Part shown: in pieces, positions 3,500-52,281 of the stretch
How the letters are laid out: each line of letters opens with the position of its first letter
How positions within the stretch are numbered: the first letter of the stretch is position 1
NCBI GenBank assembly: GCA_030602705.1
Contig: JAUVZF010000009.1
Location: 94-64,093, forward strand
DNA: 64,000 bases
DNA from: Planctomycetota bacterium
Lineage (GTDB): Bacteria; Planctomycetota; Phycisphaerae; FEN-1346
Direction: 5' to 3'
Notes under the pieces: generated by a model
What the model was told of the DNA's origin: nothing
The model's input: the letters and a program-made list of their open reading frames with translations, nothing else
The model's database searches: none
Program-made: the position numbers and the translations under genes

Positions 3500-6400
3500 A
3501 TGCGTGGAGCAGGATCATCCCGTGGTTTTCTCAGCACCGCCCTCGTACTACAACGAAACTTGAGTCTTTGTGCCCGCCTGGCGGCGTGCCCAGGCCGCCA
3601 GGAACGTGTCCCAGGGCCTTTCGCGGCGGCATGGTCCAGTACGGAGGCGTATGCCGAAGGCCGCCGCGCGGGAGGCCTCGTTGTAGTGCTGGTCCTCGCT
3701 GTCCTGACGGTGGGTGTCGTGGCGGCCGAGACGGCGGCCCGAAAGCCCGGCGGCGGGCCGGCGCCGCGCGGCCTGTTTCACCCGAAGGACGCCAGGGTCT
3801 GGGACAAGTCGGGCCACAAGTTCGTCTGGCGCGACGCGTGCGGAAACAGTATGGATGACCACCGGTTGGCCGGCGGCTTCGAGTGGGAAGGCGACTCGCG
3901 CGACTTCATCGCCCTGGGCGAAGGACGGGTGCGGAACGAACGCCGCAACGGCCTCTTCATGCTCTCCTTCCCCGACGGAAACGTGCTCAGCGCCTCGTGG
4001 CCGGTTGAGTTCCCGAAGGGGCACGTCTGGCGGCTGCAGTACGCCCTCACCAACGAGGCGGCCGCGAAGACCGCCAACGGCCTCAAGTTCACCGTCGTGG
4101 CCACCGATGCCGCCGGCGACCCGCATACGCTGGTCGAGCGGGTCTTGCGGCCGCGCGACGACCGCGTCTACGACGAGCAGATCCGATTCGACTTCGACGT
4201 GCGCAAGATCACGTTCGTCCACGACAACCTCGGCAGCGAGATGTGGGACGTATTGTGGATTCTTCCCGACGGCCTCGTGATTCCCCGGGTGAGGGTGCCG
4301 GCCGGGACCGAGGCGAGTTTCACAGCCCTGCGGCGGGCCATCGAGGATTTGTGCCGCACCTTCCCCCGCGACTACCCGCGCGGCCCGGAGTTCCTGGGTC
4401 GACTGGACCAGTTCCAGAAGAGCCTTGCCGAGATAACGAAGCCCGAGGACCTGGCGAACCTGACCCGCGATTTTCTGGCGCTGCGCCGCGAGGCGCTGAT
4501 CGCGAACCCCCTCGTCAGCGGCCAGCCCATCCTCTACGTCGTCCGGCCACAGTACCGCAGCCACTATCACGCCATCGACACACTGTTTCACACGGGGGAG
4601 TTCAACGTCGACAGAAACGAGCCGCACACCAACCTGTTCCAGGGCGGCGGCGCGATGAAGACGATCGACCTCGCGCGCGGCGGCGAGGTGAAGGTCCTGG
4701 TCGACGTGCCCGCGGGCGTTGCCCGCGACCCGGAGGTGCACTTCGACGGGCAGAAAATTATCTTTGCGCTCCGCCGCAACGTGCGCGAAGACTACCACAT
4801 CTGGGAGGTGAATGCCGATGGTTCGGGCATGAAGCAACTCACGTTTGCGGCGGGCGTCTCCGACTTCGACCCCATCTACCTGCCCGACGACACGATTGTC
4901 TTCTCATCGACGCGCGAGCCGAAGTTCAATCAGTGCTCGCGCGACCACGCGGCCAACCTCTTCCGCATGGAGGCCGACGGGGCCAACATTCACCAGATCG
5001 AACGCAACAACCTGTTCGATAACCAGCCGTCGCTGATGCCCGACGGCCGCATTTTCTACGCCCGTTGGGAATATGTCGACCGCAACTTCGGCGACGCTCA
5101 CAGCCTGTGGACCGTCGGCCCGGACGGGACGAACCAGGCCGTCTTCTGGGGCAACAACACGGCCTCGCCGGGCGCGGTCTACACGGCGCGCATCCTCCCC
5201 GGCACGAACCGGGCCATCTGCATCTTCGGCCCGCACCACGACCACCTGTGGGGGGCGATGGCGATTATCGACCCGAGCCTGGGCCTCGACGGTCGCGAGC
5301 CGGTCGTCCGCATCTGGCCGCCGGAGGCCATCAACCTCATCCGCACGGGCGGCCCGTTCGACTGCGACACGTTCTCAAGGGTGCGCCTCAAGTACGCCGA
5401 CCCGTACCCGCTCAGTGACCCCGCGACGGGCCGGGGGGCAGGTAAGTACTTCCTTTGCTCTCGCAGGACCGGCCGCGGCGACCAGATGGGAATTTACCTG
5501 GTTGACGTCTTCGGCAACGAACTGCTGCTGCACGCCGAGGGGCCGGGCTGCTACGACCCGATGCCGGTCGGACCGCGGCCGCGCCCGCCGGTTGTCCCCC
5601 CGCGGCGTGACTTTTCCGGCGCCCCGGGCCTGCTTTACGTCATGGACGTGTATCAGGGGACGCACATGCGCGGGGTCGAGCGCGGAACGGTGAAGCGGCT
5701 GCGCGTCGTCGAGTCGCCCGAGAAACGGCTCTGGTCGGCCGGCAGTTGGAACGGCCAGGGCTACACCGCGCCGGGGATGAACTGGCACAGCCTCGAGAAC
5801 AAGCGCATCCTCGGCTCTGTGCCGGTCGAGGAGGACGGGTCCGCGTACTTCGCCGTCCCGTCCGACCGGTTCGTCTACTTCCAGTTGCTCGACTCCAACG
5901 GGATGATGATCCAGTCGATGCGAAGCGGCACGATGGTGCAATCGGGCGAGCGGACCGGATGCGTCGGGTGCCACGAGGATCGCCTCACGGCCCCGCCGAA
6001 CCACCGGAGCCTGGCCGTGTCGCGACCCCCGCGAAAACTGGAGCCCTGGCACGGCCCGCCGCGCCTGTTCAGTTACATGGCCGAGGTCCAGCCGGTCTTC
6101 AACCGGCACTGCCTGGGGTGCCACGACTACGGCAAGAAGGGCGCGAAGAAACTCGTCCTCGCGCCCGACCGCGACCTGACGTTCAACGCCGCCTACAACG
6201 AACTCTGGCGCAAAGGCTACACGGGCGCCGTGGGCGGCGGACCAGCCGAGATCCGGCAAGCACGCTCCTGGGGCTCGCACGCCAGCAAACTGGTGCAGGT
6301 CCTTCGCAAGGGGCACAACGACGTCAAACTCAGCCCGGAGGAGTTCGACCGCATCGTCACCTGGGTGGACCTGAACGCGCCGTACTACGCCCACTACGCG

Positions 6401-7053: not shown

Positions 7054-7057
7054 ATCA

Positions 7058-8352: not shown

Positions 8353-9765
<1,413 letters not shown>

Positions 9766-9934: not shown

Positions 9935-10044
9935 GGTTGTAGCGCCCGTACGGGCGCCCGCCCGTCAGGCCGACGGCGGTTCCGCGCCGGGGATAAACCC
10001 CGGCGCTACGGCTGTTCGGAAAGACTTCCTCGCTCCTGCCTAGT
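9935..10044. repeat. 110-bp GGGGATAAACCCC MITE-like element, copy B
   Basis: Near-identical to the inverted copy C at 41820..41929. It has terminal inverted GTAGCGCC/GGCGCTAC and an internal GCGCCCGTACGGGCGC palindrome. Confidence 0.8.
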
Positions 10045-11122
10045 TGGCGTGGCCTGGCGGCTCGCTGGCGTGACGGATGACGCCGACGGAGCGCGGCACG
10101 AGAAGGTCGAACTCGCGCTGCCAGGAGACGGCGACGGCGGCGCCGTCGGCATCGGCCGCCTCTTGAGGCACGGCCGTCTCGCCCGTCTCGCCCGGCTCGA
10201 TGCGCGTGTCGATGTCGTGACAGACGTCGCCCGCGCGGACGCCCTCCACGATTACCTGGACGGCCGAGCCGTTCCGGACGCGGACCGTATCCTTGTCGGT
10301 CCGCACCTCCAGGGCGCCCTCCAGGAACTTGGCCGTCGCGCCCAGCGGCACCGTCTCGTGGAACCGGTGGCGCACGTTGACGAGCAGGATGAACCGGGCG
10401 CTGTACTCGCCCAGGTAGCCGTGATACTCCAGGATGCGTTTGCTCTCGTCGGCGGGGTTGACGACCTCCAGGATGACCGGCCGGCCGATGTACTGCTCGA
10501 TCATCGGCTCGTAGGCGTTGGCGGTCTCGCCGACGAGCATCGTGCCGACGGTGCCGACCTGCCCGCCCTGGGCCTTCAGAACCGGGCTCGGCGACGTCTT
10601 GGCCGCCTGCTGGAGACTCATGCCCATCGCGCTGACGATGGCGTCGCGGAAGGTGTTGACGATGTTGCGTGCCCACCGCGCCACGCGGGTTCCCAGCGGC
10701 GGGTCGGCCATTCGGCGGGTCTGGCGGCGGCGCCGCCGGAGGGCCTTCTCGTCGAGGCGGTCCACGAAACGGTGAATCGAGAGGATGCGGCCGAGTTCGG
10801 CCTCGTAGATGAGAAACGAGTTCTTGGACGGGCGCTCCAGGGGCGACTCGTACACCAGTTCCAGCCCCTTCGAGAAGACCTTCAGAAGCCCCCAGATGCG
10901 GCGGCCTGCCTGCTCCTGGAGCGTGACGGGGTGCCGCCGGAACGTCTTCAGGCACCGGTCCCGCTTCCGCGCCGCGACGAACGCCCCGACCAGCGCCACC
11001 ACGAAGACGACCGTCAGCGCCAGGGCGAACGGGTTATCGAGGACGAAATCGAGGATGCCGCCTCCCTCGCTCCCGCTCTGCGGCGGCGCTGCCTGCTCGG
11101 CCAGGATCGCAAGATGGATCAT
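10040..11122 (-). CDS. hypothetical membrane-anchored protein
   Basis: 360-aa ORF with an N-terminal TM helix LALTVVFVVALVGAFVAA. No recognisable domain. Confidence 0.55.
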   Translation of the reverse strand: MIHLAILAEQAAPPQSGSEGGGILDFVLDNPFALALTVVFVVALVGAFVAARKRDRCLKTFRRHPVTLQEQAGRRIWGLLKVFSKGLELVYESPLERPSKNSFLIYEAELGRILSIHRFVDRLDEKALRRRRRQTRRMADPPLGTRVARWARNIVNTFRDAIVSAMGMSLQQAAKTSPSPVLKAQGGQVGTVGTMLVGETANAYEPMIEQYIGRPVILEVVNPADESKRILEYHGYLGEYSARFILLVNVRHRFHETVPLGATAKFLEGALEVRTDKDTVRVRNGSAVQVIVEGVRAGDVCHDIDTRIEPGETGETAVPQEAADADGAAVAVSWQREFDLLVPRSVGVIRHASEPPGHAN

Positions 11123-11223
11123 GGGTGGCCTCCCAAGCGTCCCCGCGCTTGCGTCCCCGCTCCCGGCGCGCCGGGATTGGGGCTTTGTTCAGTTTCGCGC
11201 TGGCGAGTTTCGCGCGCTTGCGC

Positions 11224-12042
11224 TCAGCCGGATGGCATCTGGTCCAAAGTCTGGACCCGTTCCGGGACGGGGTTGGCCGGCGCGTCCGGAAGCAGGCCCA
11301 TGTCCTCCTCGATGCGCCGGGTGGCGAGGGACGCGTACTGCTCGGATAACTCCGTGCCGACCCACCGGCGCCCGTGGCGGGCGGCGGCGACCAGCGTCGT
11401 GCCGCTGCCGGCGAACGGGTCGAGCACCACGTCGCCCGGCCTCGAGCACGCCAGGATGATCCGCGTGAGCAGTTTCACCGGCATCTGGCACGGGTGCCAG
11501 CCCACCCGTTCCTTGAACGTGCCGCACACCCGCGAGATCGTCCACACGTCGTCCGGCAGTTTGCCCTTCGGGTTGGCACGCTTGTCGTTGTACTTCAGTT
11601 GCCGGTCGGACGGCACGCGGACGGCGTCGCCGTTGAAGGTAAACGCATGGGGGTCCTTCACGAAATAGAACAGGTGAGCGTGGCCGCGGTTGAACTTGGC
11701 CTTGCAGTTCTGGCCGAACGTGTAGTGCCAGATGACCCAATTCCGCAGCGTCGCCCACCGGTTCTCGCGCATCATCATGCGGACCTCGGCGGCGTATTCG
11801 TCGCCGATGGCGATCCAGAACGTGCCGTCCGGCGCGAGAACACGCAGGCACTCGTAGATCCACCGCTCCGTCCAGTCGACGTACTCGTCGTGCTCCAGGT
11901 CGTCCTGGTACTTGTCGTACTCGTACCCGATGTTGAACGGCGGGTCGGCGAACACCAGGTCCACGCAGCCCTCGGGCCACGTGGGCAGGACCTCCAGGAG
12001 GTCCCCTTGAACGATCGTGCCGAGCGGCGGCGGATCGGACAT
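11224..12042 (-). CDS. DNA methyltransferase (N6-adenine/N4-cytosine, beta-class; apparently orphan)
   Basis: Motif IV DPPFN precedes motif I DPFAGSGTT. No adjacent endonuclease candidate. Confidence 0.85.
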   Translation of the reverse strand: MSDPPPLGTIVQGDLLEVLPTWPEGCVDLVFADPPFNIGYEYDKYQDDLEHDEYVDWTERWIYECLRVLAPDGTFWIAIGDEYAAEVRMMMRENRWATLRNWVIWHYTFGQNCKAKFNRGHAHLFYFVKDPHAFTFNGDAVRVPSDRQLKYNDKRANPKGKLPDDVWTISRVCGTFKERVGWHPCQMPVKLLTRIILACSRPGDVVLDPFAGSGTTLVAAARHGRRWVGTELSEQYASLATRRIEEDMGLLPDAPANPVPERVQTLDQMPSG

Positions 12043-29335: not shown

Positions 29336-29415
29336 CGTGTCCTCCCGGCAAAGCAGGTGCCTGTGGCCGGCCGCAAGCGGCTCCTGGCGGCAGGCAGCGA
29401 CGCAGTCCGATCGGC

Positions 29416-30849: not shown

Positions 30850-30923
30850 GGGCCTCACTCCTCCCGCCTTTCGTTGACGTAAAACCCGTCGTGCATGAAG
30901 AGCCCGAACTCCGCGTTGGCAAC

Positions 30924-31115
30924 CTACTCCAGCGCGGCTGCCTTGGGGTCCTTTCGGTACAGGTCCGCGTACTCTTTCAGGTAGGATAGCACGCTTGACT
31001 CGCTCACCGTCTTTTTCTCCCTCTGAGCGAGACCGTTGGCACAGCCGCCTGCGCCGAGCGCGATCCCCGCACCGAGAGCCTGTGGGAATTGCCTTCGCGT
31101 CTGTTTGGGTATCAT
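30924..31115 (-). CDS. small ORF with twin-arginine signal (TRRQFPQALGAGIALGAGG); small exported peptide or gene remnant
   Basis: 63 aa. Carries a Tat motif. Lies in a 480-bp divergent intergenic region. Confidence 0.3.
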   Translation of the reverse strand: MIPKQTRRQFPQALGAGIALGAGGCANGLAQREKKTVSESSVLSYLKEYADLYRKDPKAAALE

Positions 31116-31332
31116 CCGTCTCTTCGTGCGGCAGTGCTGCTTCCCGCGCGCCCCACGATGCTACTTGCCGGCCTGGGCGTTTGCAAGGGCAACAAGGACG
31201 CGGGATGACTGGCGCCGGCTTTGACTCGGGCACCGGGAGTTTGCACAGCACGATTGGCTGTGAGCGCGGTTACACGTAATGAAGGACCGCATGGTGGGTG
31301 TGCGCCGAAGCAGGCGGTTGTGACGGGGGTCG

Positions 31333-33717: not shown

Positions 33718-33821
33718 CGGCAGGGGGCCGCACGTTGGGTGCAGCAGGTCTGCTCTTCCGCCCGCCGTTTCGGCATTTTGCCTTGATTCGTCCCGCGCGG
33801 CCGCATACCGTCGGTTCCACC

Positions 33822-34694
33822 ATGCAGCCCGACGAGCGCACCTACACGACGAGCGACGGCACCGAACTGCCGGTGCGGGTTTGGCCGCCACCAAAAAAGG
33901 TACCAGGTACCTTTTTGGCGAGGCCCGCGGCGCTCGTGTATCTGCACGGCATCCAGAGCCACTCGGGATGGTACGAAGCGTCGTCGCGGCGCCTGGCGGA
34001 GGCGGGCGTGGCGGTCTATCAGATTGAGCGTCGCGGCAGCGGGCGCGATGCGGACCACGAGCGCGGTCACGTCGATAAGGCCGAAACGTGGCTCGAGGAC
34101 GTTGCCCGGGCGGCGGAACTGGCGCGCGACGAGACCGGCGCCGGCAGCGTTCACCTGATGGGCATCTCGTGGGGCGGCAAACTGGCGATGGCGTGCGCCG
34201 CCCATCGGCCGGACCTGTACCGCAGCCTTATCCTCTCGGCGCCCGGCATCGTGCCCATCGTCGATGTTGCGGTGACGATCAAGGTCCGCATCGCGAAGTG
34301 CCTGATGATGGGCCGGGAACTCAGACGGTTCCCCATCCCGATCGACGACCCGCACCTTTTCACCGAGAACCCCGACCGGGTGCGCTACATCGCCGAGGAC
34401 GAACTGAGCCTGCGCGACCTGACGGCCCGGTTCATGTACGAGAGCCGCCGCCTCGACCGGATGGTCCGCGCAGCCGCCGCGACCGTCCGCGTACACACGC
34501 TGCTGCTGCTTGCCGAGCGCGACCGCATCATCAACAACGAAGCCACGCGGGCGCTCATCTATTCGATGGCCGCACGCAAGCGGGTCATCACGTACCCGGG
34601 CGCGCACCACACGCTGGAGTTCGAGGTGGCCCCGCAGCCGTACTTCAAGGACCTCGCGGCCTGGATCGACCAGGTGGAGGGGGAAAGCCCGTGA
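33822..34694 (+). CDS. alpha/beta-hydrolase (lysophospholipase / monoglyceride-lipase-like)
   Basis: LVYLHGIQSHSGWY and nucleophile elbow GISWGG. It contains an in-frame copy of the AAAAAGGTACCAGGTACCTTTTT palindrome encoding PPKKVPGTFLA. Confidence 0.8.
   Translation: MQPDERTYTTSDGTELPVRVWPPPKKVPGTFLARPAALVYLHGIQSHSGWYEASSRRLAEAGVAVYQIERRGSGRDADHERGHVDKAETWLEDVARAAELARDETGAGSVHLMGISWGGKLAMACAAHRPDLYRSLILSAPGIVPIVDVAVTIKVRIAKCLMMGRELRRFPIPIDDPHLFTENPDRVRYIAEDELSLRDLTARFMYESRRLDRMVRAAAATVRVHTLLLLAERDRIINNEATRALIYSMAARKRVITYPGAHHTLEFEVAPQPYFKDLAAWIDQVEGESP
33892..33918. repeat. single 21-bp palindrome of the AAAAGGTTCCAGGAACCTTTT family (variant GGTACC) embedded in-frame in a CDS
   Basis: Read from ccaAAAAAGGTACCAGGTACCTTTTTgg. 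Confidence 0.8.
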
Positions 34695-40623: not shown

Positions 40624-41574
40624 CTACTCCGCCAGTTCCAGCATCTTATTGTAAAACTCGCGGTACTCGTCGCGCTGGTCGGTCTTGAGGCACGCCATGG
40701 CGGCGCGGGGGTGCTGGTTCAGGATGCCGGTAATCATGTAGGGTACCATATAGCCCCACTCGAGTTCCTTCTGCAGGGGCCGGATCGTCTCGACCACGCA
40801 ATCGAGGACCGGCCGCAGGTCGAACTTCGGGTTCTTCAGAAACCCCAGCAGCAGTTCCATCGGGCAGTTGCCTGCCGCGCGGCCGAGGCCGTAAATCGTC
40901 CCGTCAACGAAGTTGGCGTTCTTGATGATGCCCTCGATGGTGTTGGCGAAGGCCAACTGCTGATTGTTGTGCATGTGGACGCCCACCTCGCAACTCGGGA
41001 CGATTCGCTGATACTTCTGGACCAGGTAATGCACCTGCTCGCTGTAGAGCGCCCCGAACGAATCGACGACGTAACAGGCGACGACGTGGGCCTCCTTTTC
41101 CACCTGCTCCAGGGCCGGGTCGAGTTCCCAGTCCGACTCGGTCGAGATGGCCATGACGTTGATCGTGGTCTCGTACCCCCGCTCGTGGGCCACGTTCTCG
41201 ATGGCGATCGCCTTGTCGATGTCCTTGACGTAGGTGGCGATGCGGATGGTATCGACCACCGATTCGTCGGCCGGGATGATGTCGTTGGGGTCCGACTTGT
41301 GGGCGTCCATCATGACCGAGATCCTGGTGCCGGGGTTCTCGATGCCGTCGGTGGCCGCACGCAGGTCCTTCTCGTCGCAGAACCGCCACGGGCCGAACTC
41401 CTTCGGATCGAACATCTCCTTGGAGTTGCGGTAACCCAGTTCGACGTAATCGATGTGTGCCTGGCAGCAGGCCTCATAGACCGCCCGGACGGTCTGGAGT
41501 TCGAAATGCGAATCGTTCGCCAGCCCGCCGTCGCGGATCGTGCAGTCGAGTACCTTGATCTGGGGACGAAACAC
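40624..41574 (-). CDS. HMGL-like (pyruvate carboxyltransferase) family aldolase/synthase (4-hydroxy-2-oxovalerate aldolase / 2-isopropylmalate-synthase-like)
   Basis: IKVLDCTIRDGG N-terminus. TIM-barrel motifs HMHNN. Confidence 0.65.
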   Translation of the reverse strand: MFRPQIKVLDCTIRDGGLANDSHFELQTVRAVYEACCQAHIDYVELGYRNSKEMFDPKEFGPWRFCDEKDLRAATDGIENPGTRISVMMDAHKSDPNDIIPADESVVDTIRIATYVKDIDKAIAIENVAHERGYETTINVMAISTESDWELDPALEQVEKEAHVVACYVVDSFGALYSEQVHYLVQKYQRIVPSCEVGVHMHNNQQLAFANTIEGIIKNANFVDGTIYGLGRAAGNCPMELLLGFLKNPKFDLRPVLDCVVETIRPLQKELEWGYMVPYMITGILNQHPRAAMACLKTDQRDEYREFYNKMLELAE

Positions 41575-41623
41575 CGCTGTTCACCTCCGTTTCGCAAGGG
41601 CCGTCGGTCACCGCGGCGACCCG

Positions 41624-41735
41624 CCGCAAGGCCGTGCCTTTCAGTGGCGCCGCCCGCAAGCGGGCCGCAGTGTGCGGCACGAGCGGGGCATTATACACAC
41701 CATCGGCAATCGAGTGAAGGAAATGTAGCGAACAC
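41624..41735 (-). promoter_or_regulatory. ~112-bp conserved promoter/leader module, copy 1 (minus-strand sense: TTCACT-17-TATAAT then GC hairpin), immediately 5' of the HMGL-like gene
   Basis: ~95% identical to 43390..43501, which sits 5' of the BNR gene. Confidence 0.6.
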
Positions 41736-41819
41736 CCGACGATGATCGGCCCGGACCGGCAGCACCGGCCGCCGGGCGGAAAGGGGATGCGTTCTGAAGG
41801 CAGACCCGGCCGCTACGGA

Positions 41820-41929
41820 CTAAGCAGGAGCGAGAAAGTGTTTCCGAACAGCCGTAGCGCCGGGGTTTATCCCCGGCGTGGAACCGCCGTCGGCCTGACG
41901 GGCGGCCGCCCGTACGGGCGCTACAACCT
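41820..41929. repeat. 110-bp GGGGATAAACCCC MITE-like element, copy C (inverted relative to copy B)
   Basis: Reverse complement matches 9935..10044 at ~95%. Confidence 0.8.
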
Positions 41930-41968
41930 TGGGTCCACGCCAAGTCAGCCGCCGAATTCGGATTGACT

Positions 41969-43339
41969 TCATCGCTCCTGCTTAGCGACGGGCTCGAGAA
42001 ACTCGTACAGACGCAGCATATTCGGTTCGGGGAGCGGGGGCTTGCGCGGCCGGTCGCGGTTCGCCGGCAGCGTCTCCCACCGGAGGGCATATCGGATGCC
42101 GGGCGCGCCGCCCGAACCGGAATCCCCGGCCCATCGGACCTCGAGCCCCGGAAACGCGGACTCGACCTTCCCCAGTTGCTTCGGGCGCGGCCGGCCGCCC
42201 CGGTACGGGTCCGTATGGACAGGCGACCGCCCGATGTGCCTGAGCGTCGCCTCATCGACCAGGAAAAGCCCCGACCCGCGCTTGACGTGCCGGCAGGACT
42301 GGACCAGTTTGCCCTCGGGCGTGACGCGGACGCCGCCGATTCGCACCTCAGACACGATGGCCCCACCGCCGCGGAAGTCCCAGCGGTAATCCCAGTCGGT
42401 GGCCCGAGCGATCCGCCACCGGCCGCCCTCCAGCCGCGCGTTATACAACTGCGTCTTGCCCTCGGCGTCGAACTTGTGGTAACTGACGATGACGCGCCGC
42501 TTCGAGTCGAAACCCAGCACCACGTTGCCGTTGATGACACCCCCGCCAGGCGGAACCGGATCGACGATCAGGCCGGGCGTCTCGACGGTCATCGGCAGCC
42601 GAACCGTCCGGCCGGCAGCCGTCTCCCAACGGCGAAGATCCTTGCTCCGCGCGTACGACGGGTCGTGGTTGGTCGCGCAGTCGGGCGTATCGCGCCAGAC
42701 CCAGCATAAATGGAAGTACCCGTCGGGGCCCTTCACCGGCCCGTGGAGGTACGCGTTCATCCTGCCCCGACCGTCGGTCAGGGGCGAATCGAGCATGCGG
42801 CGCCACGCTTGCTTTTCGTGATCGTACACATTGTAGATCTGGTCGCCGTTTCCGCTGCCCCCGTCGCGGTAGGTGAAGATGAGTTCGTTGTCCGGGCCGC
42901 GGAAGAATCGCGGATACGTAACCCGTTTCTCCCGGGCGCCCACCATCCGGTCGACCCGCTCGAAGGCCGTGATGTCGTGCGGCCGCGCGGTCCGGAAATA
43001 CTTGAGCGGCGCGCCGTGCATGTTGCCGCTCAGGTGGACGTGCCCGTCATCGTCGACAGCCATGCGGACGGAGTTGTGGCTGTCCCAGCCGACCTTCTCC
43101 GGCAGGCGGACCAGTTGGAACCGGTCGGCCTCCAGCGTGCGTGCGCCTACGGTCATACGCCGCTCGGCATCGTAGAAGGCAACGTACTGCCGGCCGCCGT
43201 GGGTCAGGAGGTGGAATCCGACCGGATGCCCCGCCCAGACGGTGGCGATGTCGATGGTGCGTCGGATCTCGACTTCCGCCGCCGCCGGCACGGTTACCTG
43301 CGCCAGTGTCACTACCACGACAAAAACCATGATTCGCAT
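41969..43339 (-). CDS. secreted BNR-repeat-containing family protein (sialidase/glycosidase-like beta-propeller)
   Basis: Signal MRIMVFVVVVTLAQVTVPAAA. SxDxGxTW-like motifs. Confidence 0.55.
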   Translation of the reverse strand: MRIMVFVVVVTLAQVTVPAAAEVEIRRTIDIATVWAGHPVGFHLLTHGGRQYVAFYDAERRMTVGARTLEADRFQLVRLPEKVGWDSHNSVRMAVDDDGHVHLSGNMHGAPLKYFRTARPHDITAFERVDRMVGAREKRVTYPRFFRGPDNELIFTYRDGGSGNGDQIYNVYDHEKQAWRRMLDSPLTDGRGRMNAYLHGPVKGPDGYFHLCWVWRDTPDCATNHDPSYARSKDLRRWETAAGRTVRLPMTVETPGLIVDPVPPGGGVINGNVVLGFDSKRRVIVSYHKFDAEGKTQLYNARLEGGRWRIARATDWDYRWDFRGGGAIVSEVRIGGVRVTPEGKLVQSCRHVKRGSGLFLVDEATLRHIGRSPVHTDPYRGGRPRPKQLGKVESAFPGLEVRWAGDSGSGGAPGIRYALRWETLPANRDRPRKPPLPEPNMLRLYEFLEPVAKQER

Positions 43340-43389
43340 CAGAGTTCCCCTGCCCGCCGCAAGTCGAACGCCGCCGGCCCGCCCGGCCG

Positions 43390-43501
43390 CCGCAAGGCCT
43401 TACCTTTCAGTGGCGCCGCCCGCAAGCGGGCCGCAGTGTGCGGCACGAGCGGAGCATTATACACACCATCGGCAATCGAGTGAAGGAAATGTAGCGAACA
43501 C
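43390..43501 (-). promoter_or_regulatory. ~112-bp conserved promoter/leader module, copy 2, immediately 5' of the BNR-repeat gene
   Basis: See copy 1 (41624..41735). Confidence 0.6.
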
Positions 43502-43522
43502 GGCCGCTGGGGGCCGGGCCCC

Positions 43523-45265
43523 TCACGCGCCGCGTCCGGGCACGCGCACCTCGGCCAGGGTCCGTTCGACCTCTTCCTCTTTCCTGGCGTCGTCCCAACC
43601 GAGCGGGGGTGCTATGACCTCGGCCAGTTCCTGGAGCACGTCACGGCGGGCGTCGCCGAGCAGGGCGATGGTGCTGCGGCGGCAGACGAGGTCCGTGAGG
43701 TGCTCGACGTATTCGTCGGCCGCGATGCGTGCAATCTCGCCGACCGTGTAATCGGGGAGCGATTCGAGCGGCCGTTCGGCCCCGGCGTCGGCCTGCGTGG
43801 CCCAGAGGCCGGCGGCGGCGCCGTAACGGTCGAGCAGGGCGGCGAGGCGCGTCTCGTCCAGGCCCGACGCCTTCGCGGCGCTCGCGATCCACGCTTCCTT
43901 CTGCCCCGCGTCGGCCGGGAAATTCCTGCCGCCGCCGATGGGCAGGTGCGCGGTCGAGCACCGCCGCTCGGCGCCCAGGCGCTCCAGGACCCGGTCGGCC
44001 GTCTGTTCGGCGAAGGCGCGGAACGTGGTCCACTTGCCGCCGATGAGATTGTAGACGGGAAACGCCCGGTCGCCGTTCCGAAGTCTGCCCGCGGCCCGAG
44101 CCGCTTTACGGCCAGGGGACCCGTTCCGGGCCGGTTCGATGGTGCGGATGCTGTGGCCGCGGCTGACGTTGGCCAGGACCTCGCCTTCGCTTGCCGGCAG
44201 CGGCCGCACACCACAGAAGGCGAACACGATGTCTTCGCGCGACACGTCGATGCCCGGAAACACGCCGCGCAGCGTCGCAAGCATGTAGTCAATCTCGTTC
44301 TGGTCGCAGGCGGCGGTGTCGGGGTCGGCCACGCGGATGTCGGTCGAGCCCATGATCACCTTGTCCATGAACGGGAAGACGATGCAGACGCGGCCGTCGG
44401 CGTGCTGATAGTAGACCATCCGCTCGCCGATCGCTTCGTGCAGCGGGCGGCAATCGATCACCAGGTGCGAGCCCTTCGTGCCGCCCATGTACCGTGTCGG
44501 CAGGCCGAGCGTCTCGTTGGTAACGTCGATCCAGCCGCCGGTCGCGTTGGCGAGGACGCGCGGCCGGACAGCGACCGTCTCGCCGGTGACCTCGTCCTCC
44601 AGGATCACGGCGCCGTCTTCGATGCCGCGCGGCCGCACGTAGTTGATCGCGCGGCAGTTGGGATTGGCGGCGCGGGCATCCTGGATGAGTTCGATACACA
44701 GGCGCTCGGCCTGGGTAATCCAGGCGTCCCAGTACGTTGCGGTGGCGGCGATGTTCGGGTTCAGCCCCGGTATGCTTCGGAGCGACTCGTCCCTGGACGT
44801 GATGAAGTGCGTGGGCGTCCGGCGGTCTTTGCGGGTAATGAAGTCGTAGAACGCCAGGCCTATCTTGACGGGCACGACGCCCCGGCTGCCCGGTGTCACG
44901 GAGAGGCCTGAGAAGATGAGCGCCGACCGGGCCAGCCCGCCGAGATACGAGAACAGCGGCATGGTCGTCTTCAGCGGCGAGACGTAATGCGGCGCGTTCT
45001 CGAGCAGGCGGTTGCGTTCGAAGAGCGCTTCGCGGACCAGTTGGAACTCGCGGTTCTCCAGGTACCGGAGCCCCCCGTGGATCATCCGCGACGATTTGGA
45101 ACTCGCCCCGGCGACGAAGTCCGACTTGTCCACCAGCAGGCAGTCCACGCCCTGAAGCGCCAGTTCCCTGAACAACCCCGTCCCGTTCACACCGCCGCCC
45201 AGGATCAGGACGGGGACCTCGGGGTTCGCGCGGATGCCTTGGAGGGTTTGTTCTCGCGGGTTCAT
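43523..45265 (-). CDS. glpD: FAD-dependent glycerol-3-phosphate dehydrogenase
   Basis: VLILGGGVNGTG...SSKSSRMIHGGLRYL, ~580 aa. Confidence 0.8.
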   Translation of the reverse strand: MNPREQTLQGIRANPEVPVLILGGGVNGTGLFRELALQGVDCLLVDKSDFVAGASSKSSRMIHGGLRYLENREFQLVREALFERNRLLENAPHYVSPLKTTMPLFSYLGGLARSALIFSGLSVTPGSRGVVPVKIGLAFYDFITRKDRRTPTHFITSRDESLRSIPGLNPNIAATATYWDAWITQAERLCIELIQDARAANPNCRAINYVRPRGIEDGAVILEDEVTGETVAVRPRVLANATGGWIDVTNETLGLPTRYMGGTKGSHLVIDCRPLHEAIGERMVYYQHADGRVCIVFPFMDKVIMGSTDIRVADPDTAACDQNEIDYMLATLRGVFPGIDVSREDIVFAFCGVRPLPASEGEVLANVSRGHSIRTIEPARNGSPGRKAARAAGRLRNGDRAFPVYNLIGGKWTTFRAFAEQTADRVLERLGAERRCSTAHLPIGGGRNFPADAGQKEAWIASAAKASGLDETRLAALLDRYGAAAGLWATQADAGAERPLESLPDYTVGEIARIAADEYVEHLTDLVCRRSTIALLGDARRDVLQELAEVIAPPLGWDDARKEEEVERTLAEVRVPGRGA

Positions 45266-45400
45266 CTGCGTGGCTCGGTTAGCACAGGGAACGATACGGT
45301 CTTGCGCGGCGGGTCTCCGTACCCGCCGCGCTGCAGCCAAACGCGGTGGGTCAGGAGACCCACCGCGCGAGTCTCGGTCCGAACTGCGGCCTCGCCGCGC

Positions 45401-46948
45401 TCACGACGCCGCCAGGTCGGCAAGCGACGCGCTGATCTGCTTCAGCGACGGGTAGACCTGCCGGTAGACCTCGAACCGCTCGGCGTACGTCTCGGCGAGA
45501 CGGGCGTTGGGCTCGTACACGGGGCCGGGTCTGCGGACCTTCTCGAAGGCGTGGAGTTCGTCGTTGTAGATGCCGACGCCGATGCCGGCGAGCATGGCGG
45601 CGCCGAGCGGCGTGGCCTCCTCAATCTGCGGCGCCTCGACCGGCACGCCGGACACGTCGGCCTTGTTCTGCATCCAGAACGTGTTGCGTGTGGCGCCGCC
45701 GACGGCAACGATGCGCTCGGCCGTCAGCCCCAGGCCGCCCTCGACGGCCCGGAGGATATCGAGGAACTGGTAATCGAGCCCCTCGAAGATGGCGCGGATC
45801 ATCTCTGCCTTCGTGGTCATGCTGCGAAGCCCGACGAACGCCCCGCGCGACTTCGGATCGACCACCGGACACGTGCTGCCCGAGAGGTGCGGCAGAAAGA
45901 GGAGCCCGCCCGCCCCCGGCGGCGCTTCCTTGGCCGCGCCGATGAGGTAGTCCCAGTCGGTCCCGCCTTCGGTTTCGTTCCGATGCGATTCCGCCAGGCC
46001 GTACTCCTTGCGGAACCATTCGAGGCACTCGCCCGCCGGCGTGCTCGCCCACGCCGCCCACGTGCCGCGAGCCACGTGCGCCTGGACCGTCAGGCCGGTC
46101 TGCCTCAGTTGCGGCGTCAGGACGGGCTCGGGCTTCGAGGCCGAGACGATCTCCCACGTGCCCGTCACGTCGAGGACGACGCCCGGCCGGAACGCCCCCA
46201 CGGGCAGGTTGCCGCACAGATGGTCGTGGCCTCCGAGGACCACGGGCGTGCCGGCGGGCAGGCCCGTCGCCCGGGCGGCGTCGGCGGTTACTTCGCCCAG
46301 CACGGTGGTGCTCGGATGGGCGTCGGGCATGAGGCGCCGGTCGATGCCGGCAAGACCCAGCAGTTCATCCGACCAGTCGAGCGTTTTCTGGTCGAAGAGC
46401 ATCATGCACGACGCCATGCTGTAGTCGGTGGCCCGGCGCCGGCAGAGCATGAAGTTCAGGAAGTCTTCGATGAGGAGCCATGTGGCGGTGCGCGCGAGAA
46501 TCTCAGGCTCGTTCTCGGCCATCCACCGTATCCTGAGCGCCGCGTTGATGGCCCAGACGGGGTTGCCGCCGATGGAGAACGTCTTCTCGGCCCCGATGTT
46601 GGCGAGCCACCACTGGAGTTGCGGCTGGGTGCGCGGGTCGAGCCAACTGATGAACGGGTACAGCCACGTGCCGTCTTCGGCGATGGGCACGCCGTCCATG
46701 CCCATGCCGGTGACGGCTACGGCCTTGATGCGGGCGGGGTCGTCGAGGCGGCCGACGGCTTCGCGGAGCGCTTCGGCGGTGCCGCCCCAGATTTGCTGCG
46801 GCTGCCACACGGTCCAGTCGGGATGGTCGGTGTCCGGGTTGAAGCGTTCGGTCGGCCGCGCGCCGCCGGCGACCGCGTTGCCGTCGGTATCGTAGATGAC
46901 GGCCTTCAGGCTGGTTGAGCCGAGGTCGATGCCGACCAGGTAGTCCAT
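45401..46948 (-). CDS. FGGY-family carbohydrate kinase (glycerol/xylulose/rhamnulose-kinase-like)
   Basis: MDYLVGIDLGSTSLKAV. Second actin-like domain VAVGGATRN. Confidence 0.8.
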   Translation of the reverse strand: MDYLVGIDLGSTSLKAVIYDTDGNAVAGGARPTERFNPDTDHPDWTVWQPQQIWGGTAEALREAVGRLDDPARIKAVAVTGMGMDGVPIAEDGTWLYPFISWLDPRTQPQLQWWLANIGAEKTFSIGGNPVWAINAALRIRWMAENEPEILARTATWLLIEDFLNFMLCRRRATDYSMASCMMLFDQKTLDWSDELLGLAGIDRRLMPDAHPSTTVLGEVTADAARATGLPAGTPVVLGGHDHLCGNLPVGAFRPGVVLDVTGTWEIVSASKPEPVLTPQLRQTGLTVQAHVARGTWAAWASTPAGECLEWFRKEYGLAESHRNETEGGTDWDYLIGAAKEAPPGAGGLLFLPHLSGSTCPVVDPKSRGAFVGLRSMTTKAEMIRAIFEGLDYQFLDILRAVEGGLGLTAERIVAVGGATRNTFWMQNKADVSGVPVEAPQIEEATPLGAAMLAGIGVGIYNDELHAFEKVRRPGPVYEPNARLAETYAERFEVYRQVYPSLKQISASLADLAAS

Positions 46949-46957
46949 CGTTTCACC

Positions 46958-47117
46958 GTACCTGTTTAGCGTGCTCTCGAAGCGATGTCATTTCGACCGA
47001 GGCCGTACGGCCGAGCGGAGAAATCTCATCGTCCGCACACGCGTAACGGCGATCCCGGCGCGCCGGGACTCGACTCGCTTCGCTCGCTCGGAATGACACG
47101 CTAAACATAAACACGTA
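46958..47117 (+). mobile_element. MITE (GTACCTGTTTAGCGTG family) copy 2, 160 bp, 8-bp TSD GTTTCACC
   Basis: TSD at 46950-46957 and 47118-47125. Confidence 0.9.
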
Positions 47118-47127
47118 CGTTTCACCT

Positions 47128-48165
47128 TTACAGGGCCAGGGGATACCGGCCGTACGCCTTGAGCGTCTCGAGCATGGCCGCGTAGTTCTCGGGCCGGATG
47201 GAGGAGTGAATCGAGTTGCTCGACGAGAGGATATAGCCGCCGCCGGGGGCGCCTTGGCGGAGCGCCTCTTTCGTCGCCTCGGCGACCTCGTCGGTGGCGC
47301 CGTACACGAGTACCTCCGCACAGTCCACGTTGCCCTTGAGGGCCACGCGGTCGCCGAACCTGGCCTTGACCTGGGCCAGGTCCATGCCGCCCTGGGGGTC
47401 GATCGGGTCGAGGCAACTTATTCCGGCCTCGATCATCATGTCGATGATGGGCCGGATATTGCCGTCGCAGTGCTTGATGAACGGCAACCCCAGTTCCTTG
47501 AAGCCCGCCGCCACACGCTTCAGGCCCGGGTAGAAGAGCGTCCGGAAATGGCCCGGCGACATGAACGGCCCGGTGTTGCCGGCGTAATCGTCGCCGGTCC
47601 AGACGAAATCGGCGCCGCGCTTGGCCACCTCCCGTGCCATCTCCAGATTGATCGCCACCGACAGGGCGACGAGGGCCGTCACCAGGTCGGGCTCGGCGGC
47701 GATGGCCATGAGCAGGTTCTCCATGCCCGTCAGGTACCGCGGGATGGAGAACACGTCGTTCAGGTGAACGCCGATGGCCATCTTGCCTTTGAACTCGGCC
47801 ACGGCCTCTTCGACCGAGTCGTAGCGGCCGGGGGCGTGCGGGTCGGGCGGCGTGTAACGCTGGAAGTCGTCCATCGTCCGGATGGGCGAAGCCACCTCCA
47901 CGCCGTGCTCCTCCCTGCCGTACTCCACGACGTACCCCCACTCGGTCCGCCAGCGGTCGGGGCCGACCTGTTCCTTCGTGTAGTCGGGCGCCACGAGTAT
48001 CGCGTCGTGGCCCATGCGTACGGCGAAGTCGTTGTGGGATGTGCAGCCGGGGCAGACGGCCTCGCGCACGTTTTTGGCGATGAGCCACTCGAAGTGGGGG
48101 ACGCGGTCGGGTTCTTCGCGGCGAAGGACGCGCATGACCCGCTCGGCGCTGGTCAGTTCGGCCAT
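47128..48165 (-). CDS. uroporphyrinogen-decarboxylase (URO-D) family protein (MtaA/CmuA-like methyltransferase fold)
   Basis: 345 aa. LRREEPDRVP...GISCLDPIDP is typical of URO-D-like methyltransferases. Confidence 0.65.
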   Translation of the reverse strand: MAELTSAERVMRVLRREEPDRVPHFEWLIAKNVREAVCPGCTSHNDFAVRMGHDAILVAPDYTKEQVGPDRWRTEWGYVVEYGREEHGVEVASPIRTMDDFQRYTPPDPHAPGRYDSVEEAVAEFKGKMAIGVHLNDVFSIPRYLTGMENLLMAIAAEPDLVTALVALSVAINLEMAREVAKRGADFVWTGDDYAGNTGPFMSPGHFRTLFYPGLKRVAAGFKELGLPFIKHCDGNIRPIIDMMIEAGISCLDPIDPQGGMDLAQVKARFGDRVALKGNVDCAEVLVYGATDEVAEATKEALRQGAPGGGYILSSSNSIHSSIRPENYAAMLETLKAYGRYPLAL

Positions 48166-48171
48166 GGGGCA

Positions 48172-49323
48172 CTACTCTCCCGCGAGGTCCTCGTGCGAAC
48201 TCTCTGCGACGTGTGCCAAAGCGGATTCCACAGGCTCGCCGACCCGTTGTGGCGCAGCGGCCGCGACCTGGGCCGGGCGGCTTTCGCGCATGTGGTTGCC
48301 CTTGGCCATGATGCACACGCCGATGATCAGGATGGCGATGCCGGCGACGATCCAGGTGATGCTCTTGCGGCTGGCCCCCTTCCACTCGCCCGTGCGGAAC
48401 CCGTGGATGTTGCCGACGATGATCGCAAACGACATGAAGGCCGCGTAGCCGACCGAGATGCCCAGTTTGCCCAGGCCGATGTAGCCCAGGCCGAAGAAGA
48501 AGATCGCCCCGTCGTGCAAGAAAGCCATGATCAGCGCCAGCACCAGGAGCATGCCGACGCCGGGCTTGCCGAAGTTCTTCCAGGTCTTGTTCTTCACGAG
48601 CAGCACCACGCAGTAGCCGAACGACGAGAGGGCCCCGCCCCACAGGATGAGCGCCGTCACGACAAAGGCCGCACGCCACGGCGGGTTGCCGAAATCGTTC
48701 CGGGCGATCCCCAGGACCGGCCCGGCGTAACTTGCCGCCACGGCGTAGCAGGCACACAGGATGCCCGAGACGACGCCGATCACAAGGCCGATGAGCATCT
48801 TCGGCTTCTTCGTCGCCGTTTGCACCTCGTGGGTCTGGTGCTCGTTCTTCTTCAGGCTCCGCTCCTTGAGGATGCCGGCCCGCCCGGCGACGATCACACC
48901 GAGCAGGCAGACGGCCACGCCCGCCAGGATCACGTAGCCGTGAGGCGTGAGCACCTCGTCGGCATTGTGCAGGAGCATCGGCGCCATCGACCCGAACATG
49001 ATCTGTGCGCCGTAGTTGAGGGCGTAGGCCAGCGAGAGGCCGATGAAGGCGAAACTCATGCCCAGCGTCATCGACCCCAGGCCCCAGAGGAAACCGAAGA
49101 CGAGCGGCAGGATGAGAACGCTCAACCCGGCGGCCGAGTAGATGGTGTAGAAGTCCTTCACAATCATCGGCCCCAGCGTCACGGGAATCAGCACCGTCAC
49201 GAACAGGAAGAACGGTCCCCACAGGTTCTCCCAGGGCGTGTCCTTCTTCACGAACTTGCTCGGCAGGCCGAACGACCCGCCGCAGATCGCACCCAGAAGT
49301 ACGAAGAGGAATCCCAGGATCAT
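48172..49323 (-). CDS. L-rhamnose/H+ symporter-family (RhaT) sugar transporter
   Basis: 10-TM profile with two homologous halves; resembles the RhaT family by recall. Confidence 0.6.
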   Translation of the reverse strand: MILGFLFVLLGAICGGSFGLPSKFVKKDTPWENLWGPFFLFVTVLIPVTLGPMIVKDFYTIYSAAGLSVLILPLVFGFLWGLGSMTLGMSFAFIGLSLAYALNYGAQIMFGSMAPMLLHNADEVLTPHGYVILAGVAVCLLGVIVAGRAGILKERSLKKNEHQTHEVQTATKKPKMLIGLVIGVVSGILCACYAVAASYAGPVLGIARNDFGNPPWRAAFVVTALILWGGALSSFGYCVVLLVKNKTWKNFGKPGVGMLLVLALIMAFLHDGAIFFFGLGYIGLGKLGISVGYAAFMSFAIIVGNIHGFRTGEWKGASRKSITWIVAGIAILIIGVCIMAKGNHMRESRPAQVAAAAPQRVGEPVESALAHVAESSHEDLAGE

Positions 49324-49339
49324 CGGCGTTTCCCTATTT

Positions 49340-49713: not shown

Positions 49714-52281
49714 ATGACGGCGCGGTATGCCCCAGGCCGGTTCGTGCTTTTTTGTTTACTGGTTGCCGCACACGTCTCGTCGGCGCCGGCGGGAACCGCC
49801 GCTGCCGAGCGCGGCCAGCGCAATCGCACGCTGCTGGACCAACTCGATACGCCGCTGCTGTTCGTGAAGCGGCTCAACTACCTCGGGATTCACATCTACG
49901 ATACGTACTACAAGTGGCGGCCGGGCGGCGGCATCTACGTTCTGGAGAACCCGTCCGCGCCGCCTGCCGAGCACAGGACCCGGCCCGTCATCGACCCCAC
50001 CATGCCGGAGACGCTCGGCGCAGGCATCTACAGCGATCCCGAACTCTCCTGGGACGGCAAGCGTCTGCTCTTTTGCTACAAGCCCAGCCGGAACGGATCG
50101 ACGAGCATTTACGAGATCGGCGTGGACGGCAAGGGCCTGCGGCGGCTGACCGATCCCGCCCCGTACTGCGCCGCCTACAAGGGCAGAGAGGCGGGCAGCC
50201 ACGACGTGGCGCCGGCCTACCTGCCGGACGGTCGCATCGTCTTTCTCTCGACGCGGCCGAATGGTCTGGTGCCCTGCAACAACACGGGCGTTGCGACTCT
50301 ACACGTGATGAACGCCGACGGTTCCGACATCCACCCCATCTCGGTCAACAACGTCAACGAGTTCGACCCGTGCGTCCTGCCCGACGGCCGCATCCTCTTC
50401 GGCCGATGGGAGTACGTGGACAAGACGGCCCTGACGCAGCAGTCGCTCTGGACGGTCTTCCCCGACGGCACGAACGAGACGGCCCTGTTCGCCAACAACA
50501 TGGTTCACCCCGAGGCGCTGCTGGACGCGCGGCCGGTGCCGGGGGCGCTTCCGCTGGTGGCGGCGTCGTTCACGCGGCACAACTGCCCGCCGCGCGGCAA
50601 GGTCGGGTTCGTGGATACGTGGCTCGCAAAGAACGGGGCCGAGGCGCTGTTCAACCTGGAGGACCACCACCGGCCCACCGTTGACACCGGCGAGTCGTGC
50701 GAGCCCTGGCCCCTCTCGCGAGACGTTATCCTGTACAGCGGCAGGCCACGGGGGCGCAAGTTCAACGCCATCATGATGATCGACCGAGGTGGGCGCAAGG
50801 CGGTGGTCTGCGCAGACCCGAACATCGACTGCCATTCGCCGATCCCTGTCAGGCCGCAGTTGCGGCCGCCCGTCATCGCCCACAACACGCGGCGCGACGA
50901 GCGCGCCGGACGCTTCTTCGTTCAGGACGTTTACCAGGGCCTGACGGGGGTGAAACGCGGTGAGGTCAAGTGGCTACGCGTCATCGAAGAGACCGTGCGC
51001 ACGAGCCCGAGCCCCGGCGGCGCCCTCAACCAGACCTTCCTGATGAGTGCGGTGCTCGCCTGGAGTGCCAAGAACTTCCTGGGCGTCACGCCGGTCGAAC
51101 CCGACGGGTCGGCGTACTTCGAGGTGCCTTCGGGGCGGGCGGTCTATCTCCAGGCGCTCGACGGCGAGGGACGGCTGATCCAGAGCATGCGGACGTTCGT
51201 CCAGGCGGCGCCCGGCGTTACGCGGTCCTGCATCGGGTGCCACGAGTACAAGTTCTCGGCGCCGGCAAGCGCCGCGAGCGCCCGCGCCCGGAAACGCGGG
51301 CCTGGGCGGTTGAGGGCCGAATCCTGGGGCAGCGGGTTCATCGACTATCCGAGCATGGTCCAGCCGATACTGGATAAGCACTGTGTGCGATGCCACGGCG
51401 GCCAAGGGGGGATCTCGGCAAGCCTGGACCTGACGGGTGGGTGGACCGAGTATTTCAGCATCAGTTACGAGAACCTCGTCAGCCGGCGCGAAACGCAACT
51501 GGTGGCCTATTTGATATCGGGCATCGACTGCATGAACGGCACGTCGTACTGGTCGGCCAAGATCTTCCCGCCGCGATTCCACGGCTCCGGGGCCGCGCCC
51601 CTTGCGGACGTTCTCGTCAACGGAGACAAGGGCCACAAGAAACGCTTCACCGGCCTCTCGCGCCCCGAGCGCGACCTGTTGCTGGCCTGGATCGACACCA
51701 ACGGCCTGTACTACGGCACGTGGGACTACACAAGGCACGGGTGCCGCATCAAGGCCTGGGGCGGCATCAAGAACGCCCTGATGGCCCGGATGCAGAAGGC
51801 CGGATGCGCCCGGTGCCACGGCGACGGCAAGCGGATCCCGCGATTCGAGAGCGACTGGTTCAACTTGAAGCGGCCCGAACTCAGCCGCATCCTGCGGGCG
51901 CCGCTCGCCGAGGGCAGGAAGGGTTTCGGCCTCGCGCTGTGCCGCGACCGCAAGGTCGATCCGCGCCGGCAACGCGTCCATTTGCTGCGGACCGGGCGAT
52001 ACGTCCACGGCGCGGAGCCGCTGGAGAAGTTCAAGCCGCAGCCCACGCCGCCACCGCCGCCCGACGGAGGCCGGCCGGTGGCGTCCTTTGCCTCGACCGC
52101 TGATCCGCACTACCGGGCGATGCTGGACATCATCCGCGACGGGCGGCGACAGGCGCTGGCGGCGCCCCGCGTCGATATGCCCGGCGCGGATGTCCAGCCG
52201 GGCAGTTTCCGCCAATTCGTGCCCCACGTATTAAGGAGTGCTGTAGGTGGTTACGGGCATATGCAGGAGGGAGATTCGTAA
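49714..52281 (+). CDS. secreted beta-propeller (PD40-like) + tri-haem c-type cytochrome protein, HzsA-like architecture, paralog 3
   Basis: Signal MTARYAPGRFVLFCLLVAAHVSSAPA. CxxCH x3 (SCIGCHEY, HCVRCHGG, CARCHGD). Confidence 0.85.
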   Translation: MTARYAPGRFVLFCLLVAAHVSSAPAGTAAAERGQRNRTLLDQLDTPLLFVKRLNYLGIHIYDTYYKWRPGGGIYVLENPSAPPAEHRTRPVIDPTMPETLGAGIYSDPELSWDGKRLLFCYKPSRNGSTSIYEIGVDGKGLRRLTDPAPYCAAYKGREAGSHDVAPAYLPDGRIVFLSTRPNGLVPCNNTGVATLHVMNADGSDIHPISVNNVNEFDPCVLPDGRILFGRWEYVDKTALTQQSLWTVFPDGTNETALFANNMVHPEALLDARPVPGALPLVAASFTRHNCPPRGKVGFVDTWLAKNGAEALFNLEDHHRPTVDTGESCEPWPLSRDVILYSGRPRGRKFNAIMMIDRGGRKAVVCADPNIDCHSPIPVRPQLRPPVIAHNTRRDERAGRFFVQDVYQGLTGVKRGEVKWLRVIEETVRTSPSPGGALNQTFLMSAVLAWSAKNFLGVTPVEPDGSAYFEVPSGRAVYLQALDGEGRLIQSMRTFVQAAPGVTRSCIGCHEYKFSAPASAASARARKRGPGRLRAESWGSGFIDYPSMVQPILDKHCVRCHGGQGGISASLDLTGGWTEYFSISYENLVSRRETQLVAYLISGIDCMNGTSYWSAKIFPPRFHGSGAAPLADVLVNGDKGHKKRFTGLSRPERDLLLAWIDTNGLYYGTWDYTRHGCRIKAWGGIKNALMARMQKAGCARCHGDGKRIPRFESDWFNLKRPELSRILRAPLAEGRKGFGLALCRDRKVDPRRQRVHLLRTGRYVHGAEPLEKFKPQPTPPPPPDGGRPVASFASTADPHYRAMLDIIRDGRRQALAAPRVDMPGADVQPGSFRQFVPHVLRSAVGGYGHMQEGDS

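Follow-up and report, generated by a model that had tools for sequence, protein, structure and literature searches.

HzsA-related multihaem proteins in a Phycisphaerae genome and a lead towards glycan redox chemistry

For a long time, hydrazine synthase was considered to lack relatives beyond the anammox bacteria. Hagglund et al. (2025; PMC12758564) describe distant homologues of its alpha subunit, HzsA, that are co-located with fused homologues of the beta and gamma subunits and have lost key residues, and Dalcin Martins et al. (2023; PMC10732223) suggest that hzs-like genes form a wider family acting on other substrates. Here we analysed a 64-kb stretch of DNA (64,000 nucleotides, GC ~66%; hereafter the window) from a Planctomycetota bacterium of the Phycisphaerae (contig JAUVZF010000009.1), which encodes three proteins related to HzsA: P1 (3500-6817), P2 (31333-33717) and P3 (49714-52281), all on the + strand. 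The three share the fold of HzsA without being hydrazine synthase, and they add to a family that is already recognized (PF18582; 'HzsA-related protein' at NCBI; PMC12758564; PMC10732223) but uncharacterized. What is new here is a carbohydrate lead, in that domain fusions and neighbouring genes point to the breakdown of complex sugars and not to nitrogen chemistry.

Three proteins with the fold of HzsA

All three open reading frames (ORFs) are present at these positions, with coding-type base composition (GC at third codon positions 0.86-0.90). In pairwise BLASTP comparisons, P1 and P2 were 34% identical over 726 columns (E = 2e-109), P1 and P3 33% identical over 600 columns (E = 4e-76) and P2 and P3 31% identical over 724 columns (E = 2e-82); tblastn with family members as queries recovered exactly these three loci in the window. 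Each protein matched the HZS_alpha middle domain of Pfam (PF18582) with a score that clears the 26.6-bit cutoff by a wide margin (121.7 bits for P1, 69.2 for P2 and 86.0 for P3; E = 2e-35 to 5e-19), and in each the match is followed by a cytochrome c-type CxxCH region, the combination by which HzsA-related proteins are recognized. Pfam matches to PD40 and cytochrome c were weak in all three. Close relatives (P0054, P0361 and P0421) carry the NCBI name 'HzsA-related protein'.

P1 is 1105 aa long as the ORF reads, and its orthologues span 1010-1118 aa, most of them ~1030-1070 aa. It runs from an export signal or anchor through a CBM51-like beta-sandwich (CBM, carbohydrate-binding module), a helical linker, a six-bladed TolB-like propeller and the HZS_alpha middle domain to a two-haem C-terminal region. 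The middle domain (5684-5977, +; aa 729-826; Pfam E = 1.9e-35) ends in the first haem motif, CVGCH (5960-5974), and the second, CLGCH (6110-6124, +), is preceded by VQPVFNRH and is the equivalent of the haem alpha-II motif of HzsA. P2 (794 aa) is a bare core with CxxCH motifs at 32806, 32959 and 33301, and P3 (855 aa), which is C-terminally shortened relative to most of its orthologues, has them at 51229, 51382 and 51805; in both, the third motif lies in an extra C-terminal stretch of ~160 aa. These counts proved invariant among relatives of at least 750 aa, with two motifs in 119 of 119 relatives of P1, three in 118 of 118 of P2 and three in 120 of 120 of P3 (357 in total). Both common motifs and His609 of P2 are invariant in an alignment of P1, P2, P3 and distant members, in which RWEY, Cys185 and His285 are further invariant positions and the consensus after the first haem motif is CH(E/D).

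Beyond the propeller, the sole solved structure that P1, P2 and P3 matched by sequence was chain A of Kuenenia HzsA, 5C2V (E = 1e-14, 3e-11 and 5e-13, respectively). A profile built from the three proteins and eight relatives matched 5c2v_A with E = 2.9e-42 in four collinear segments covering chain residues 24-767. An AlphaFold model of P2 (pLDDT 84, pTM 0.86) was aligned to the same chain by Foldseek over 761 columns (TM 0.62, E = 1e-32, 20% identity), and after HzsA its next matches were TolB propellers only. These results show that P1, P2 and P3 have the fold of HzsA, composed of a six-bladed TolB-like propeller, a middle domain with haem 1 and a C-terminal domain with haem 2. A first-pass annotation, made from the DNA letters alone, had described three paralogues of one architecture, with PD40/TolB-type propeller repeats, two or three CxxCH motifs (the third in P2 and P3) and a layout like that of HzsA, and had named profile searches, a structural overlay and the persistence of the motifs in orthologues as the ways to judge it; on each of these points its description stands.

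The N-termini of P2, P3 and the orthologues of P1 are hydrophobic with Ala-rich ends, as read by eye from the sequence. P3 starts at 49714 (MTARY...), matching a 93%-identical orthologue (P0389), P2 probably starts at 31366, as does a 100%-identical database protein (P0001), and the start codon of P1 is uncertain. All three proteins would thus be exported across the cytoplasmic membrane, with c-type haems covalently attached.

The family is very large. An exhaustive search with P2 returned 19,970 clusters (at 50% identity) with E<=1e-3, 5,099 with E<=1e-10 and 1,651 with E<=1e-30. Species-representative genomes contained at least 589 loci, mostly in Planctomycetota, Verrucomicrobiota, Lentisphaerota, Kiritimatiellia and Hydrogenedentota; the closest match among them was only 65% identical, and among named relatives the nearest come from metagenome-assembled genomes of Planctomycetota/Phycisphaerae. 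P1, P2 and P3 each have their own series of orthologues at 60-93% identity and therefore represent old subfamilies and not recent duplicates. Clustering of paralogues is typical of the family, with two to four copies in 14 of ~80 loci. The window shows ordinary heterotrophs carrying several old paralogues of HzsA, and the wider data extend this to thousands of such proteins.

Distance from hydrazine synthase and the HzsBC-like partner

Against the NCBI equivalog model for HzsA (NF052339), P1, P2 and P3 scored 55.1, 76.1 and 61.5 bits, far below the cutoff of 800. Residues particular to HzsA are also missing (we use the paper numbering, from which the 5C2V chain numbering is offset by 27). Tyr591, the proximal ligand of haem alpha-I in HzsA (CSGCHYGSY), has as its counterpart, four residues after the motif His, L in P1 (CVGCHEDRL), T in P2 (CSGCHENRT) and F in P3 (CIGCHEYKF), and Cys303 (chain 276), the zinc ligand next to haem alpha-I, belongs to a stretch of four residues inserted in HzsA and missing from the family profile. 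According to PMC12758564, Cys303 is not universal even among anammox bacteria. His772 (chain His745), the distal ligand of the bis-His haem alpha-II, aligns with the invariant His609 of P2, and because of this haem 2 is predicted to be a bis-His electron-transfer haem. Haem 1 would have ordinary His ligation in place of the Tyr/Zn arrangement of HzsA, which argues that P1, P2 and P3 do not make hydrazine.

Partner genes were sought in the window. Neither tblastn with 14 HzsBC-like proteins nor inspection of credible coding frames for CxxCH motifs revealed an HzsB/C-like gene or any other CxxCH gene in the 64 kb. We rejected the anammox reading because of the low equivalog score, the state of the residues particular to HzsA and the failure to find partner genes in the window. 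That P1, P2 and P3 are nonetheless true HzsA, and their host an unrecognized anammox bacterium, has next to no chance of being correct and is already effectively refuted: it can draw only on the Pfam HZS_alpha match and the common fold, against scores of 55-76 bits, ~20% identity to HzsA, the exchange of Tyr591 and the placement of Cys303 in an insertion absent from the family, the failure to find hzsB/C or other multihaem genes in the window, and the presence of the family in thousands of non-anammox genomes of the same phyla. The three proteins are not hydrazine synthase, in agreement with the first-pass annotation, which had seen no sign of anammox and had suggested a conserved, uncharacterized periplasmic redox family. 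That suggestion is supported, with the amendment that the family has already been named and partly described. Metagenomic matches to HZS_alpha, or low-score matches to hzsA, should consequently not be taken as anammox potential.

Elsewhere in the family a partner does recur. For neighbour statistics we made our own gene calls on ~80 loci and compared genes at most three genes from a family gene (near) with those farther away (far). HzsBC-like genes, which encode a propeller and a CCP/MauG dihaem domain, were enriched near family genes (13/293 near versus 1/213 far, p=0.005). They lie within three genes in 13 of ~78 P2-type loci and directly adjoin P2-type genes in ~10, including the closest species-representative relative (L005), whereas ~65 of 78 loci have no such partner within 10 kb. 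On one contig (L090, 1-11954), a single HzsBC-like gene has four HZS_alpha genes around it, including one with a fused FGE-sulfatase domain, and the array is followed by L-PSP, GFO_IDH_MocA and 3-keto-disaccharide hydrolase genes; this arrangement suggests that one dihaem partner may serve several alpha-like paralogues.

The recurrent partner bears on a reading in which P1, P2 and P3 are alpha subunits of a hydrazine-synthase-like complex acting on NO, NH2OH or H2O2, with the fused beta-gamma partner encoded elsewhere in the genome and the link to carbohydrates incidental. Homology to HzsA over the full length fits this reading, as do the standing of HzsBC-like genes as the most specifically enriched neighbour, their position directly beside P2-type genes and the co-located alpha and beta-gamma homologues reported in PMC12758564 and PMC10732223. 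We nevertheless consider it rather unlikely, given a partner gene not found in the 64 kb or near most relatives, the absence of Tyr591 and Cys303, and fusions of the core to CBM, GH127, GH43, SASA and FGE-sulfatase modules (described below) for which an enzyme acting on small gases or ions offers no easy explanation.

Carbohydrate modules and gene neighbourhoods

N-terminal extensions of more than 150 aa were present in 57 of 269 sampled family members. A Pfam scan of 56 of these extensions identified PL4 domain III (CBM-like) in 11, F5/8 type C in 8, Laminin_G_3 in 5 and NPCBM in 2, with single cases of GH127 (catalytic and middle domains), a SASA carbohydrate esterase, CBM6 and CBM_AftD; carbohydrate-binding or glycosidase modules make up approximately half of the extensions in the family. 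The GH127 and PL4 domain III fusions were confirmed on whole proteins. In addition, one relative (P0333) joins the HzsA-like core to LamG and GH43, and L090 supplies the fusion of HZS_alpha to FGE-sulfatase noted above.

P1 itself carries such a module. Its N-terminal extension, which the first-pass annotation had taken to be ~300 aa long and unique to P1, is in fact ~380 aa long and is kept at 44-92% identity in at least 47 orthologues. The extension has no Pfam or NCBIfam match and contains a beta-sandwich with a carbohydrate-binding-module fold, CBM51-like (3794-4267, +; aa ~99-256), placed as an appended module in the manner of modular carbohydrate-active enzymes. A three-helix linker (4310-4501, +; aa ~271-334) leads from the sandwich to the propeller, and its sequence, ALRxAIEDL..RYPRG.EFL, is also retained in relatives of the P1 clade that have another N-terminal module. 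That other module, of ~300 aa (FDFETGxLxGW ... GWGHVTFDDF), is found in most relatives of the P1 core (P0314-P0381); it has no Pfam or NCBIfam match and is likely an unclassified beta-sandwich.

Most of the 120 best relatives of P3 are ~1220 aa long and end in a C-terminal LamG domain. P3 has been shortened, as 1058 nt of LamG-coding DNA present in a 94%-identical contig (L087) are deleted in the window and replaced by 84 nt (52228-52311). This deletion scar (52228-52377, +) includes, past the P3 stop, a remnant of the orthologue C-terminus (P0389 aa 1189-1213) at 52303-52377. At ~52402 the window also lacks a further 6.1 kb of L087 (4746-10876), encoding a sulfatase and a 1315-aa HZS_alpha/HEAT protein, an absence that could be real gene loss or assembly collapse.

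Appended binding modules are also what might be expected if P1, P2 and P3 were non-catalytic surface or periplasmic binding proteins, that is, receptors for glycans or peptides with a TolB-like propeller and with haems that are structural or serve only as a redox sensor. The resemblance of the propeller to TolB and tricorn-type protein-binding propellers, the lectin-like character of the modules and the PEP-CTERM proteins encoded right after P1 and P3 would fit such a role. We hold it to be improbable because two to three haem sites and the bis-His ligand are strictly retained across subfamilies at 30% identity, because a conserved core of 750 aa to which exchangeable binding modules are attached is what one would expect of a catalytic module and not of a receptor, and because redox neighbours (GFO_IDH_MocA and the dihaem partner) are enriched.

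The gene neighbourhoods also point towards sugars. Divergent from P3 lies a sugar-use cluster (40624-49323, -) comprising genes for a RhaT-like symporter, an MtaA/CmuA-like protein with a URO-D fold, an FGGY sugar kinase, a glycerol-3-phosphate dehydrogenase-like flavoprotein, a homologue of the BT3686-like (GH145-type) rhamnosidase (BNR_4) and an HMGL-like aldolase. A RhaT-like gene adjoins the P3 orthologue in L087 too. Among relatives, annotated neighbours include alginate lyase/heparinase in one context; GH16, SASA, BNR_2, GFO_IDH_MocA and 3-keto-disaccharide hydrolase in a second; GFO_IDH_MocA, SASA and F5/8 type C in a third; and, in others, GH88, or GH10 with an arabinofuranosidase-type gene, a sulfatase and an MGH1-like glycosidase, or a sulfatase (L087). 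GFO_IDH_MocA oxidoreductases were enriched near family genes (13/293 near versus 2/213 far, p=0.017).

Two members of the P3 cluster can be placed further. The BNR_4 protein (41969-43339, -) has the BT3686-type alpha-L-rhamnosidase as its best NCBIfam match (190 bits, cutoff 700) and is a distant member of the BT3686-type propeller glycosidase group. The MtaA/CmuA-like methyltransferase homologue (47128-48165, -) could act in the demethylation of methylated sugars. URO-D-like genes recur near HzsA-related genes in L046, L048, L078, L080 and L088, and in L088 they lie beside B12-binding radical SAM genes.

A conserved operon partner common to P1, P2 and P3 was sought in the window and none was found. 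An alpha/beta hydrolase gene (Hydrolase_4; 33771-34694, +) begins 54 nt 3' of P2, a position that is retained where the P2 orthologue is 74-89% identical. On the other side of P2, comparison with L001 (90% DNA identity) showed that a 1.8-kb segment (29345-31156) is present only in the window, and that two RDD genes and a gene for a 663-aa protein in the L001 flank are absent from it. The segment carries an ORF of 611 aa (29416-31251, -) with no Pfam or NCBIfam match, and in L089 the same slot holds a gene with F5/8 type C and PhoD domains; the slot upstream of P2 looks like a variable insertion slot. Small PEP-CTERM proteins are encoded directly 3' of P1 (7284-7967, +) and P3 (52416-53306, +), and also 3' of the P2 orthologue in L089; these neighbours are either meaningful or reflect many such genes in the genome.

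Elsewhere in the window, an ORF of 652 aa at 1-1956 has no Pfam or NCBIfam match. An N6/N4 DNA methylase gene (11224-12042) adjoins an ORF of 360 aa without a family match (10040-11122), both within 10040-12042 (-), and the two could constitute a restriction-modification pair. Genes for a T2SSE ATPase and a T2SSF platform protein (type II secretion or type IV pilus) lie at 54353-57228 (+), downstream of the P3 region.

A possible glycan-related redox role and its known counterparts

We favour a glycan-related redox role for P1, P2 and P3, with confidence that is evenly balanced. The conserved core of ~750 aa would act as a redox module, and exchangeable binding modules would direct it to complex carbohydrates, CBM51-like in P1, LamG in the orthologues of P3 and many others elsewhere in the family. 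The core might oxidize or reduce a substrate derived from a glycan, with haem 1 as the site; alternatively, it may relay electrons between periplasmic sugar-oxidizing enzymes, or the dihaem partner, and the respiratory chain. The candidate partner in some genomes is the fused HzsBC-like protein, with a predicted seven-bladed propeller and CCP/MauG-like dihaem domain, encoded beside one or several alpha-like genes, and any such partner of the present genome would lie outside the window.

Several observations weigh against a glycan-related role. P2 is the core alone, with no binding module, and F5/8 type C and LamG are general binding modules, with ligands not confined to carbohydrates. In the window, the genes immediately around P1 and P2 are not rich in carbohydrate functions. 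Because such genes abound in the genomes of these phyla anyway, the evidence from neighbourhoods carries only moderate weight. Across the ~80 loci, sulfatase and 3-keto-disaccharide hydrolase genes were no more frequent near family genes than far from them and are not counted as specific evidence. The recurrent HzsBC-like partner fits small-molecule chemistry (NO, hydroxylamine, H2O2) equally well. Export signals and haem ligation were deduced from sequence and alignment alone. Finally, O2-dependent chemistry of the kind carried out by lytic polysaccharide monooxygenases (LPMOs) is disfavoured because many of the hosts are anaerobes.

A broader proposal, which we advance tentatively and regard as possible though on the doubtful side, is that, in Planctomycetota, Verrucomicrobiota and their relatives, the core forms the catalytic part of a large, unrecognized haem-c redox class with complex or sulfated glycans as substrates, in some cases alongside a CCP/MauG-like dihaem partner, and that anammox hydrazine synthase was recruited from this machinery. 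If the core is indeed a haem-dependent glycan redox enzyme, it would represent a new class of enzyme in polysaccharide turnover by these phyla, including in anoxic sediments. The swappable carbohydrate-binding and glycosidase modules offer a testable lead on the role of the ancestral fold. We found no published link between hydrazine-synthase homologues and carbohydrate-degrading enzymes, although this is weak evidence of absence, as the coverage of the search was incomplete.

Among described systems, the closest is HzsA of Kuenenia stuttgartiensis (5C2V/5C2W), which shares with P1, P2 and P3 the full-length domain order and fold, both CxxCH motifs and His772; export, predicted for the three from hydrophobic N-termini, would be a further likeness. 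HzsA lacks the propeller motif RWEY(V)DR found throughout the family, having SSVQ in its place; P2 and P3 add ~160 aa and a third haem, P1 adds a CBM-fold N-terminal module, and none of the three has adjacent genes for beta and gamma subunits. The homologues of clades I-IV (PMC12758564), like the hzs-like genes found in Phycisphaerae UBA1845 (PMC10732223), belong to the same superfamily and the same host phyla, and have likewise lost Tyr591 and Cys303. These studies chose alpha homologues located beside a beta-gamma homologue and found 'few', whereas P1, P2 and P3 are orphans in a family that is very large. His772 is reported in PMC12758564 to be absent from clade I, whereas the aligned His is invariant in the present family alignment, and the accessible text of both studies does not mention fusions to carbohydrate-binding or glycosidase modules.

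The six-bladed TolB/PD40 propellers, the next-best match after HzsA in both structure and sequence, lack haem domains and match only ~340 residues at 13-18% identity. A functional counterpart may instead be found among the secreted proteins Cbp2D and Cbp2E of Cellvibrio japonicus and fungal cellobiose dehydrogenase, which combine a cytochrome-type redox module with a carbohydrate-binding module and occur among carbohydrate-degrading genes. These proteins supply copper LPMOs with electrons in oxic settings and have folds unrelated to the HzsA-related core; here no LPMO was encountered, and the family has many anaerobic hosts. The proposed glycan redox class would, in these terms, be comparable to an 'auxiliary activity' family.

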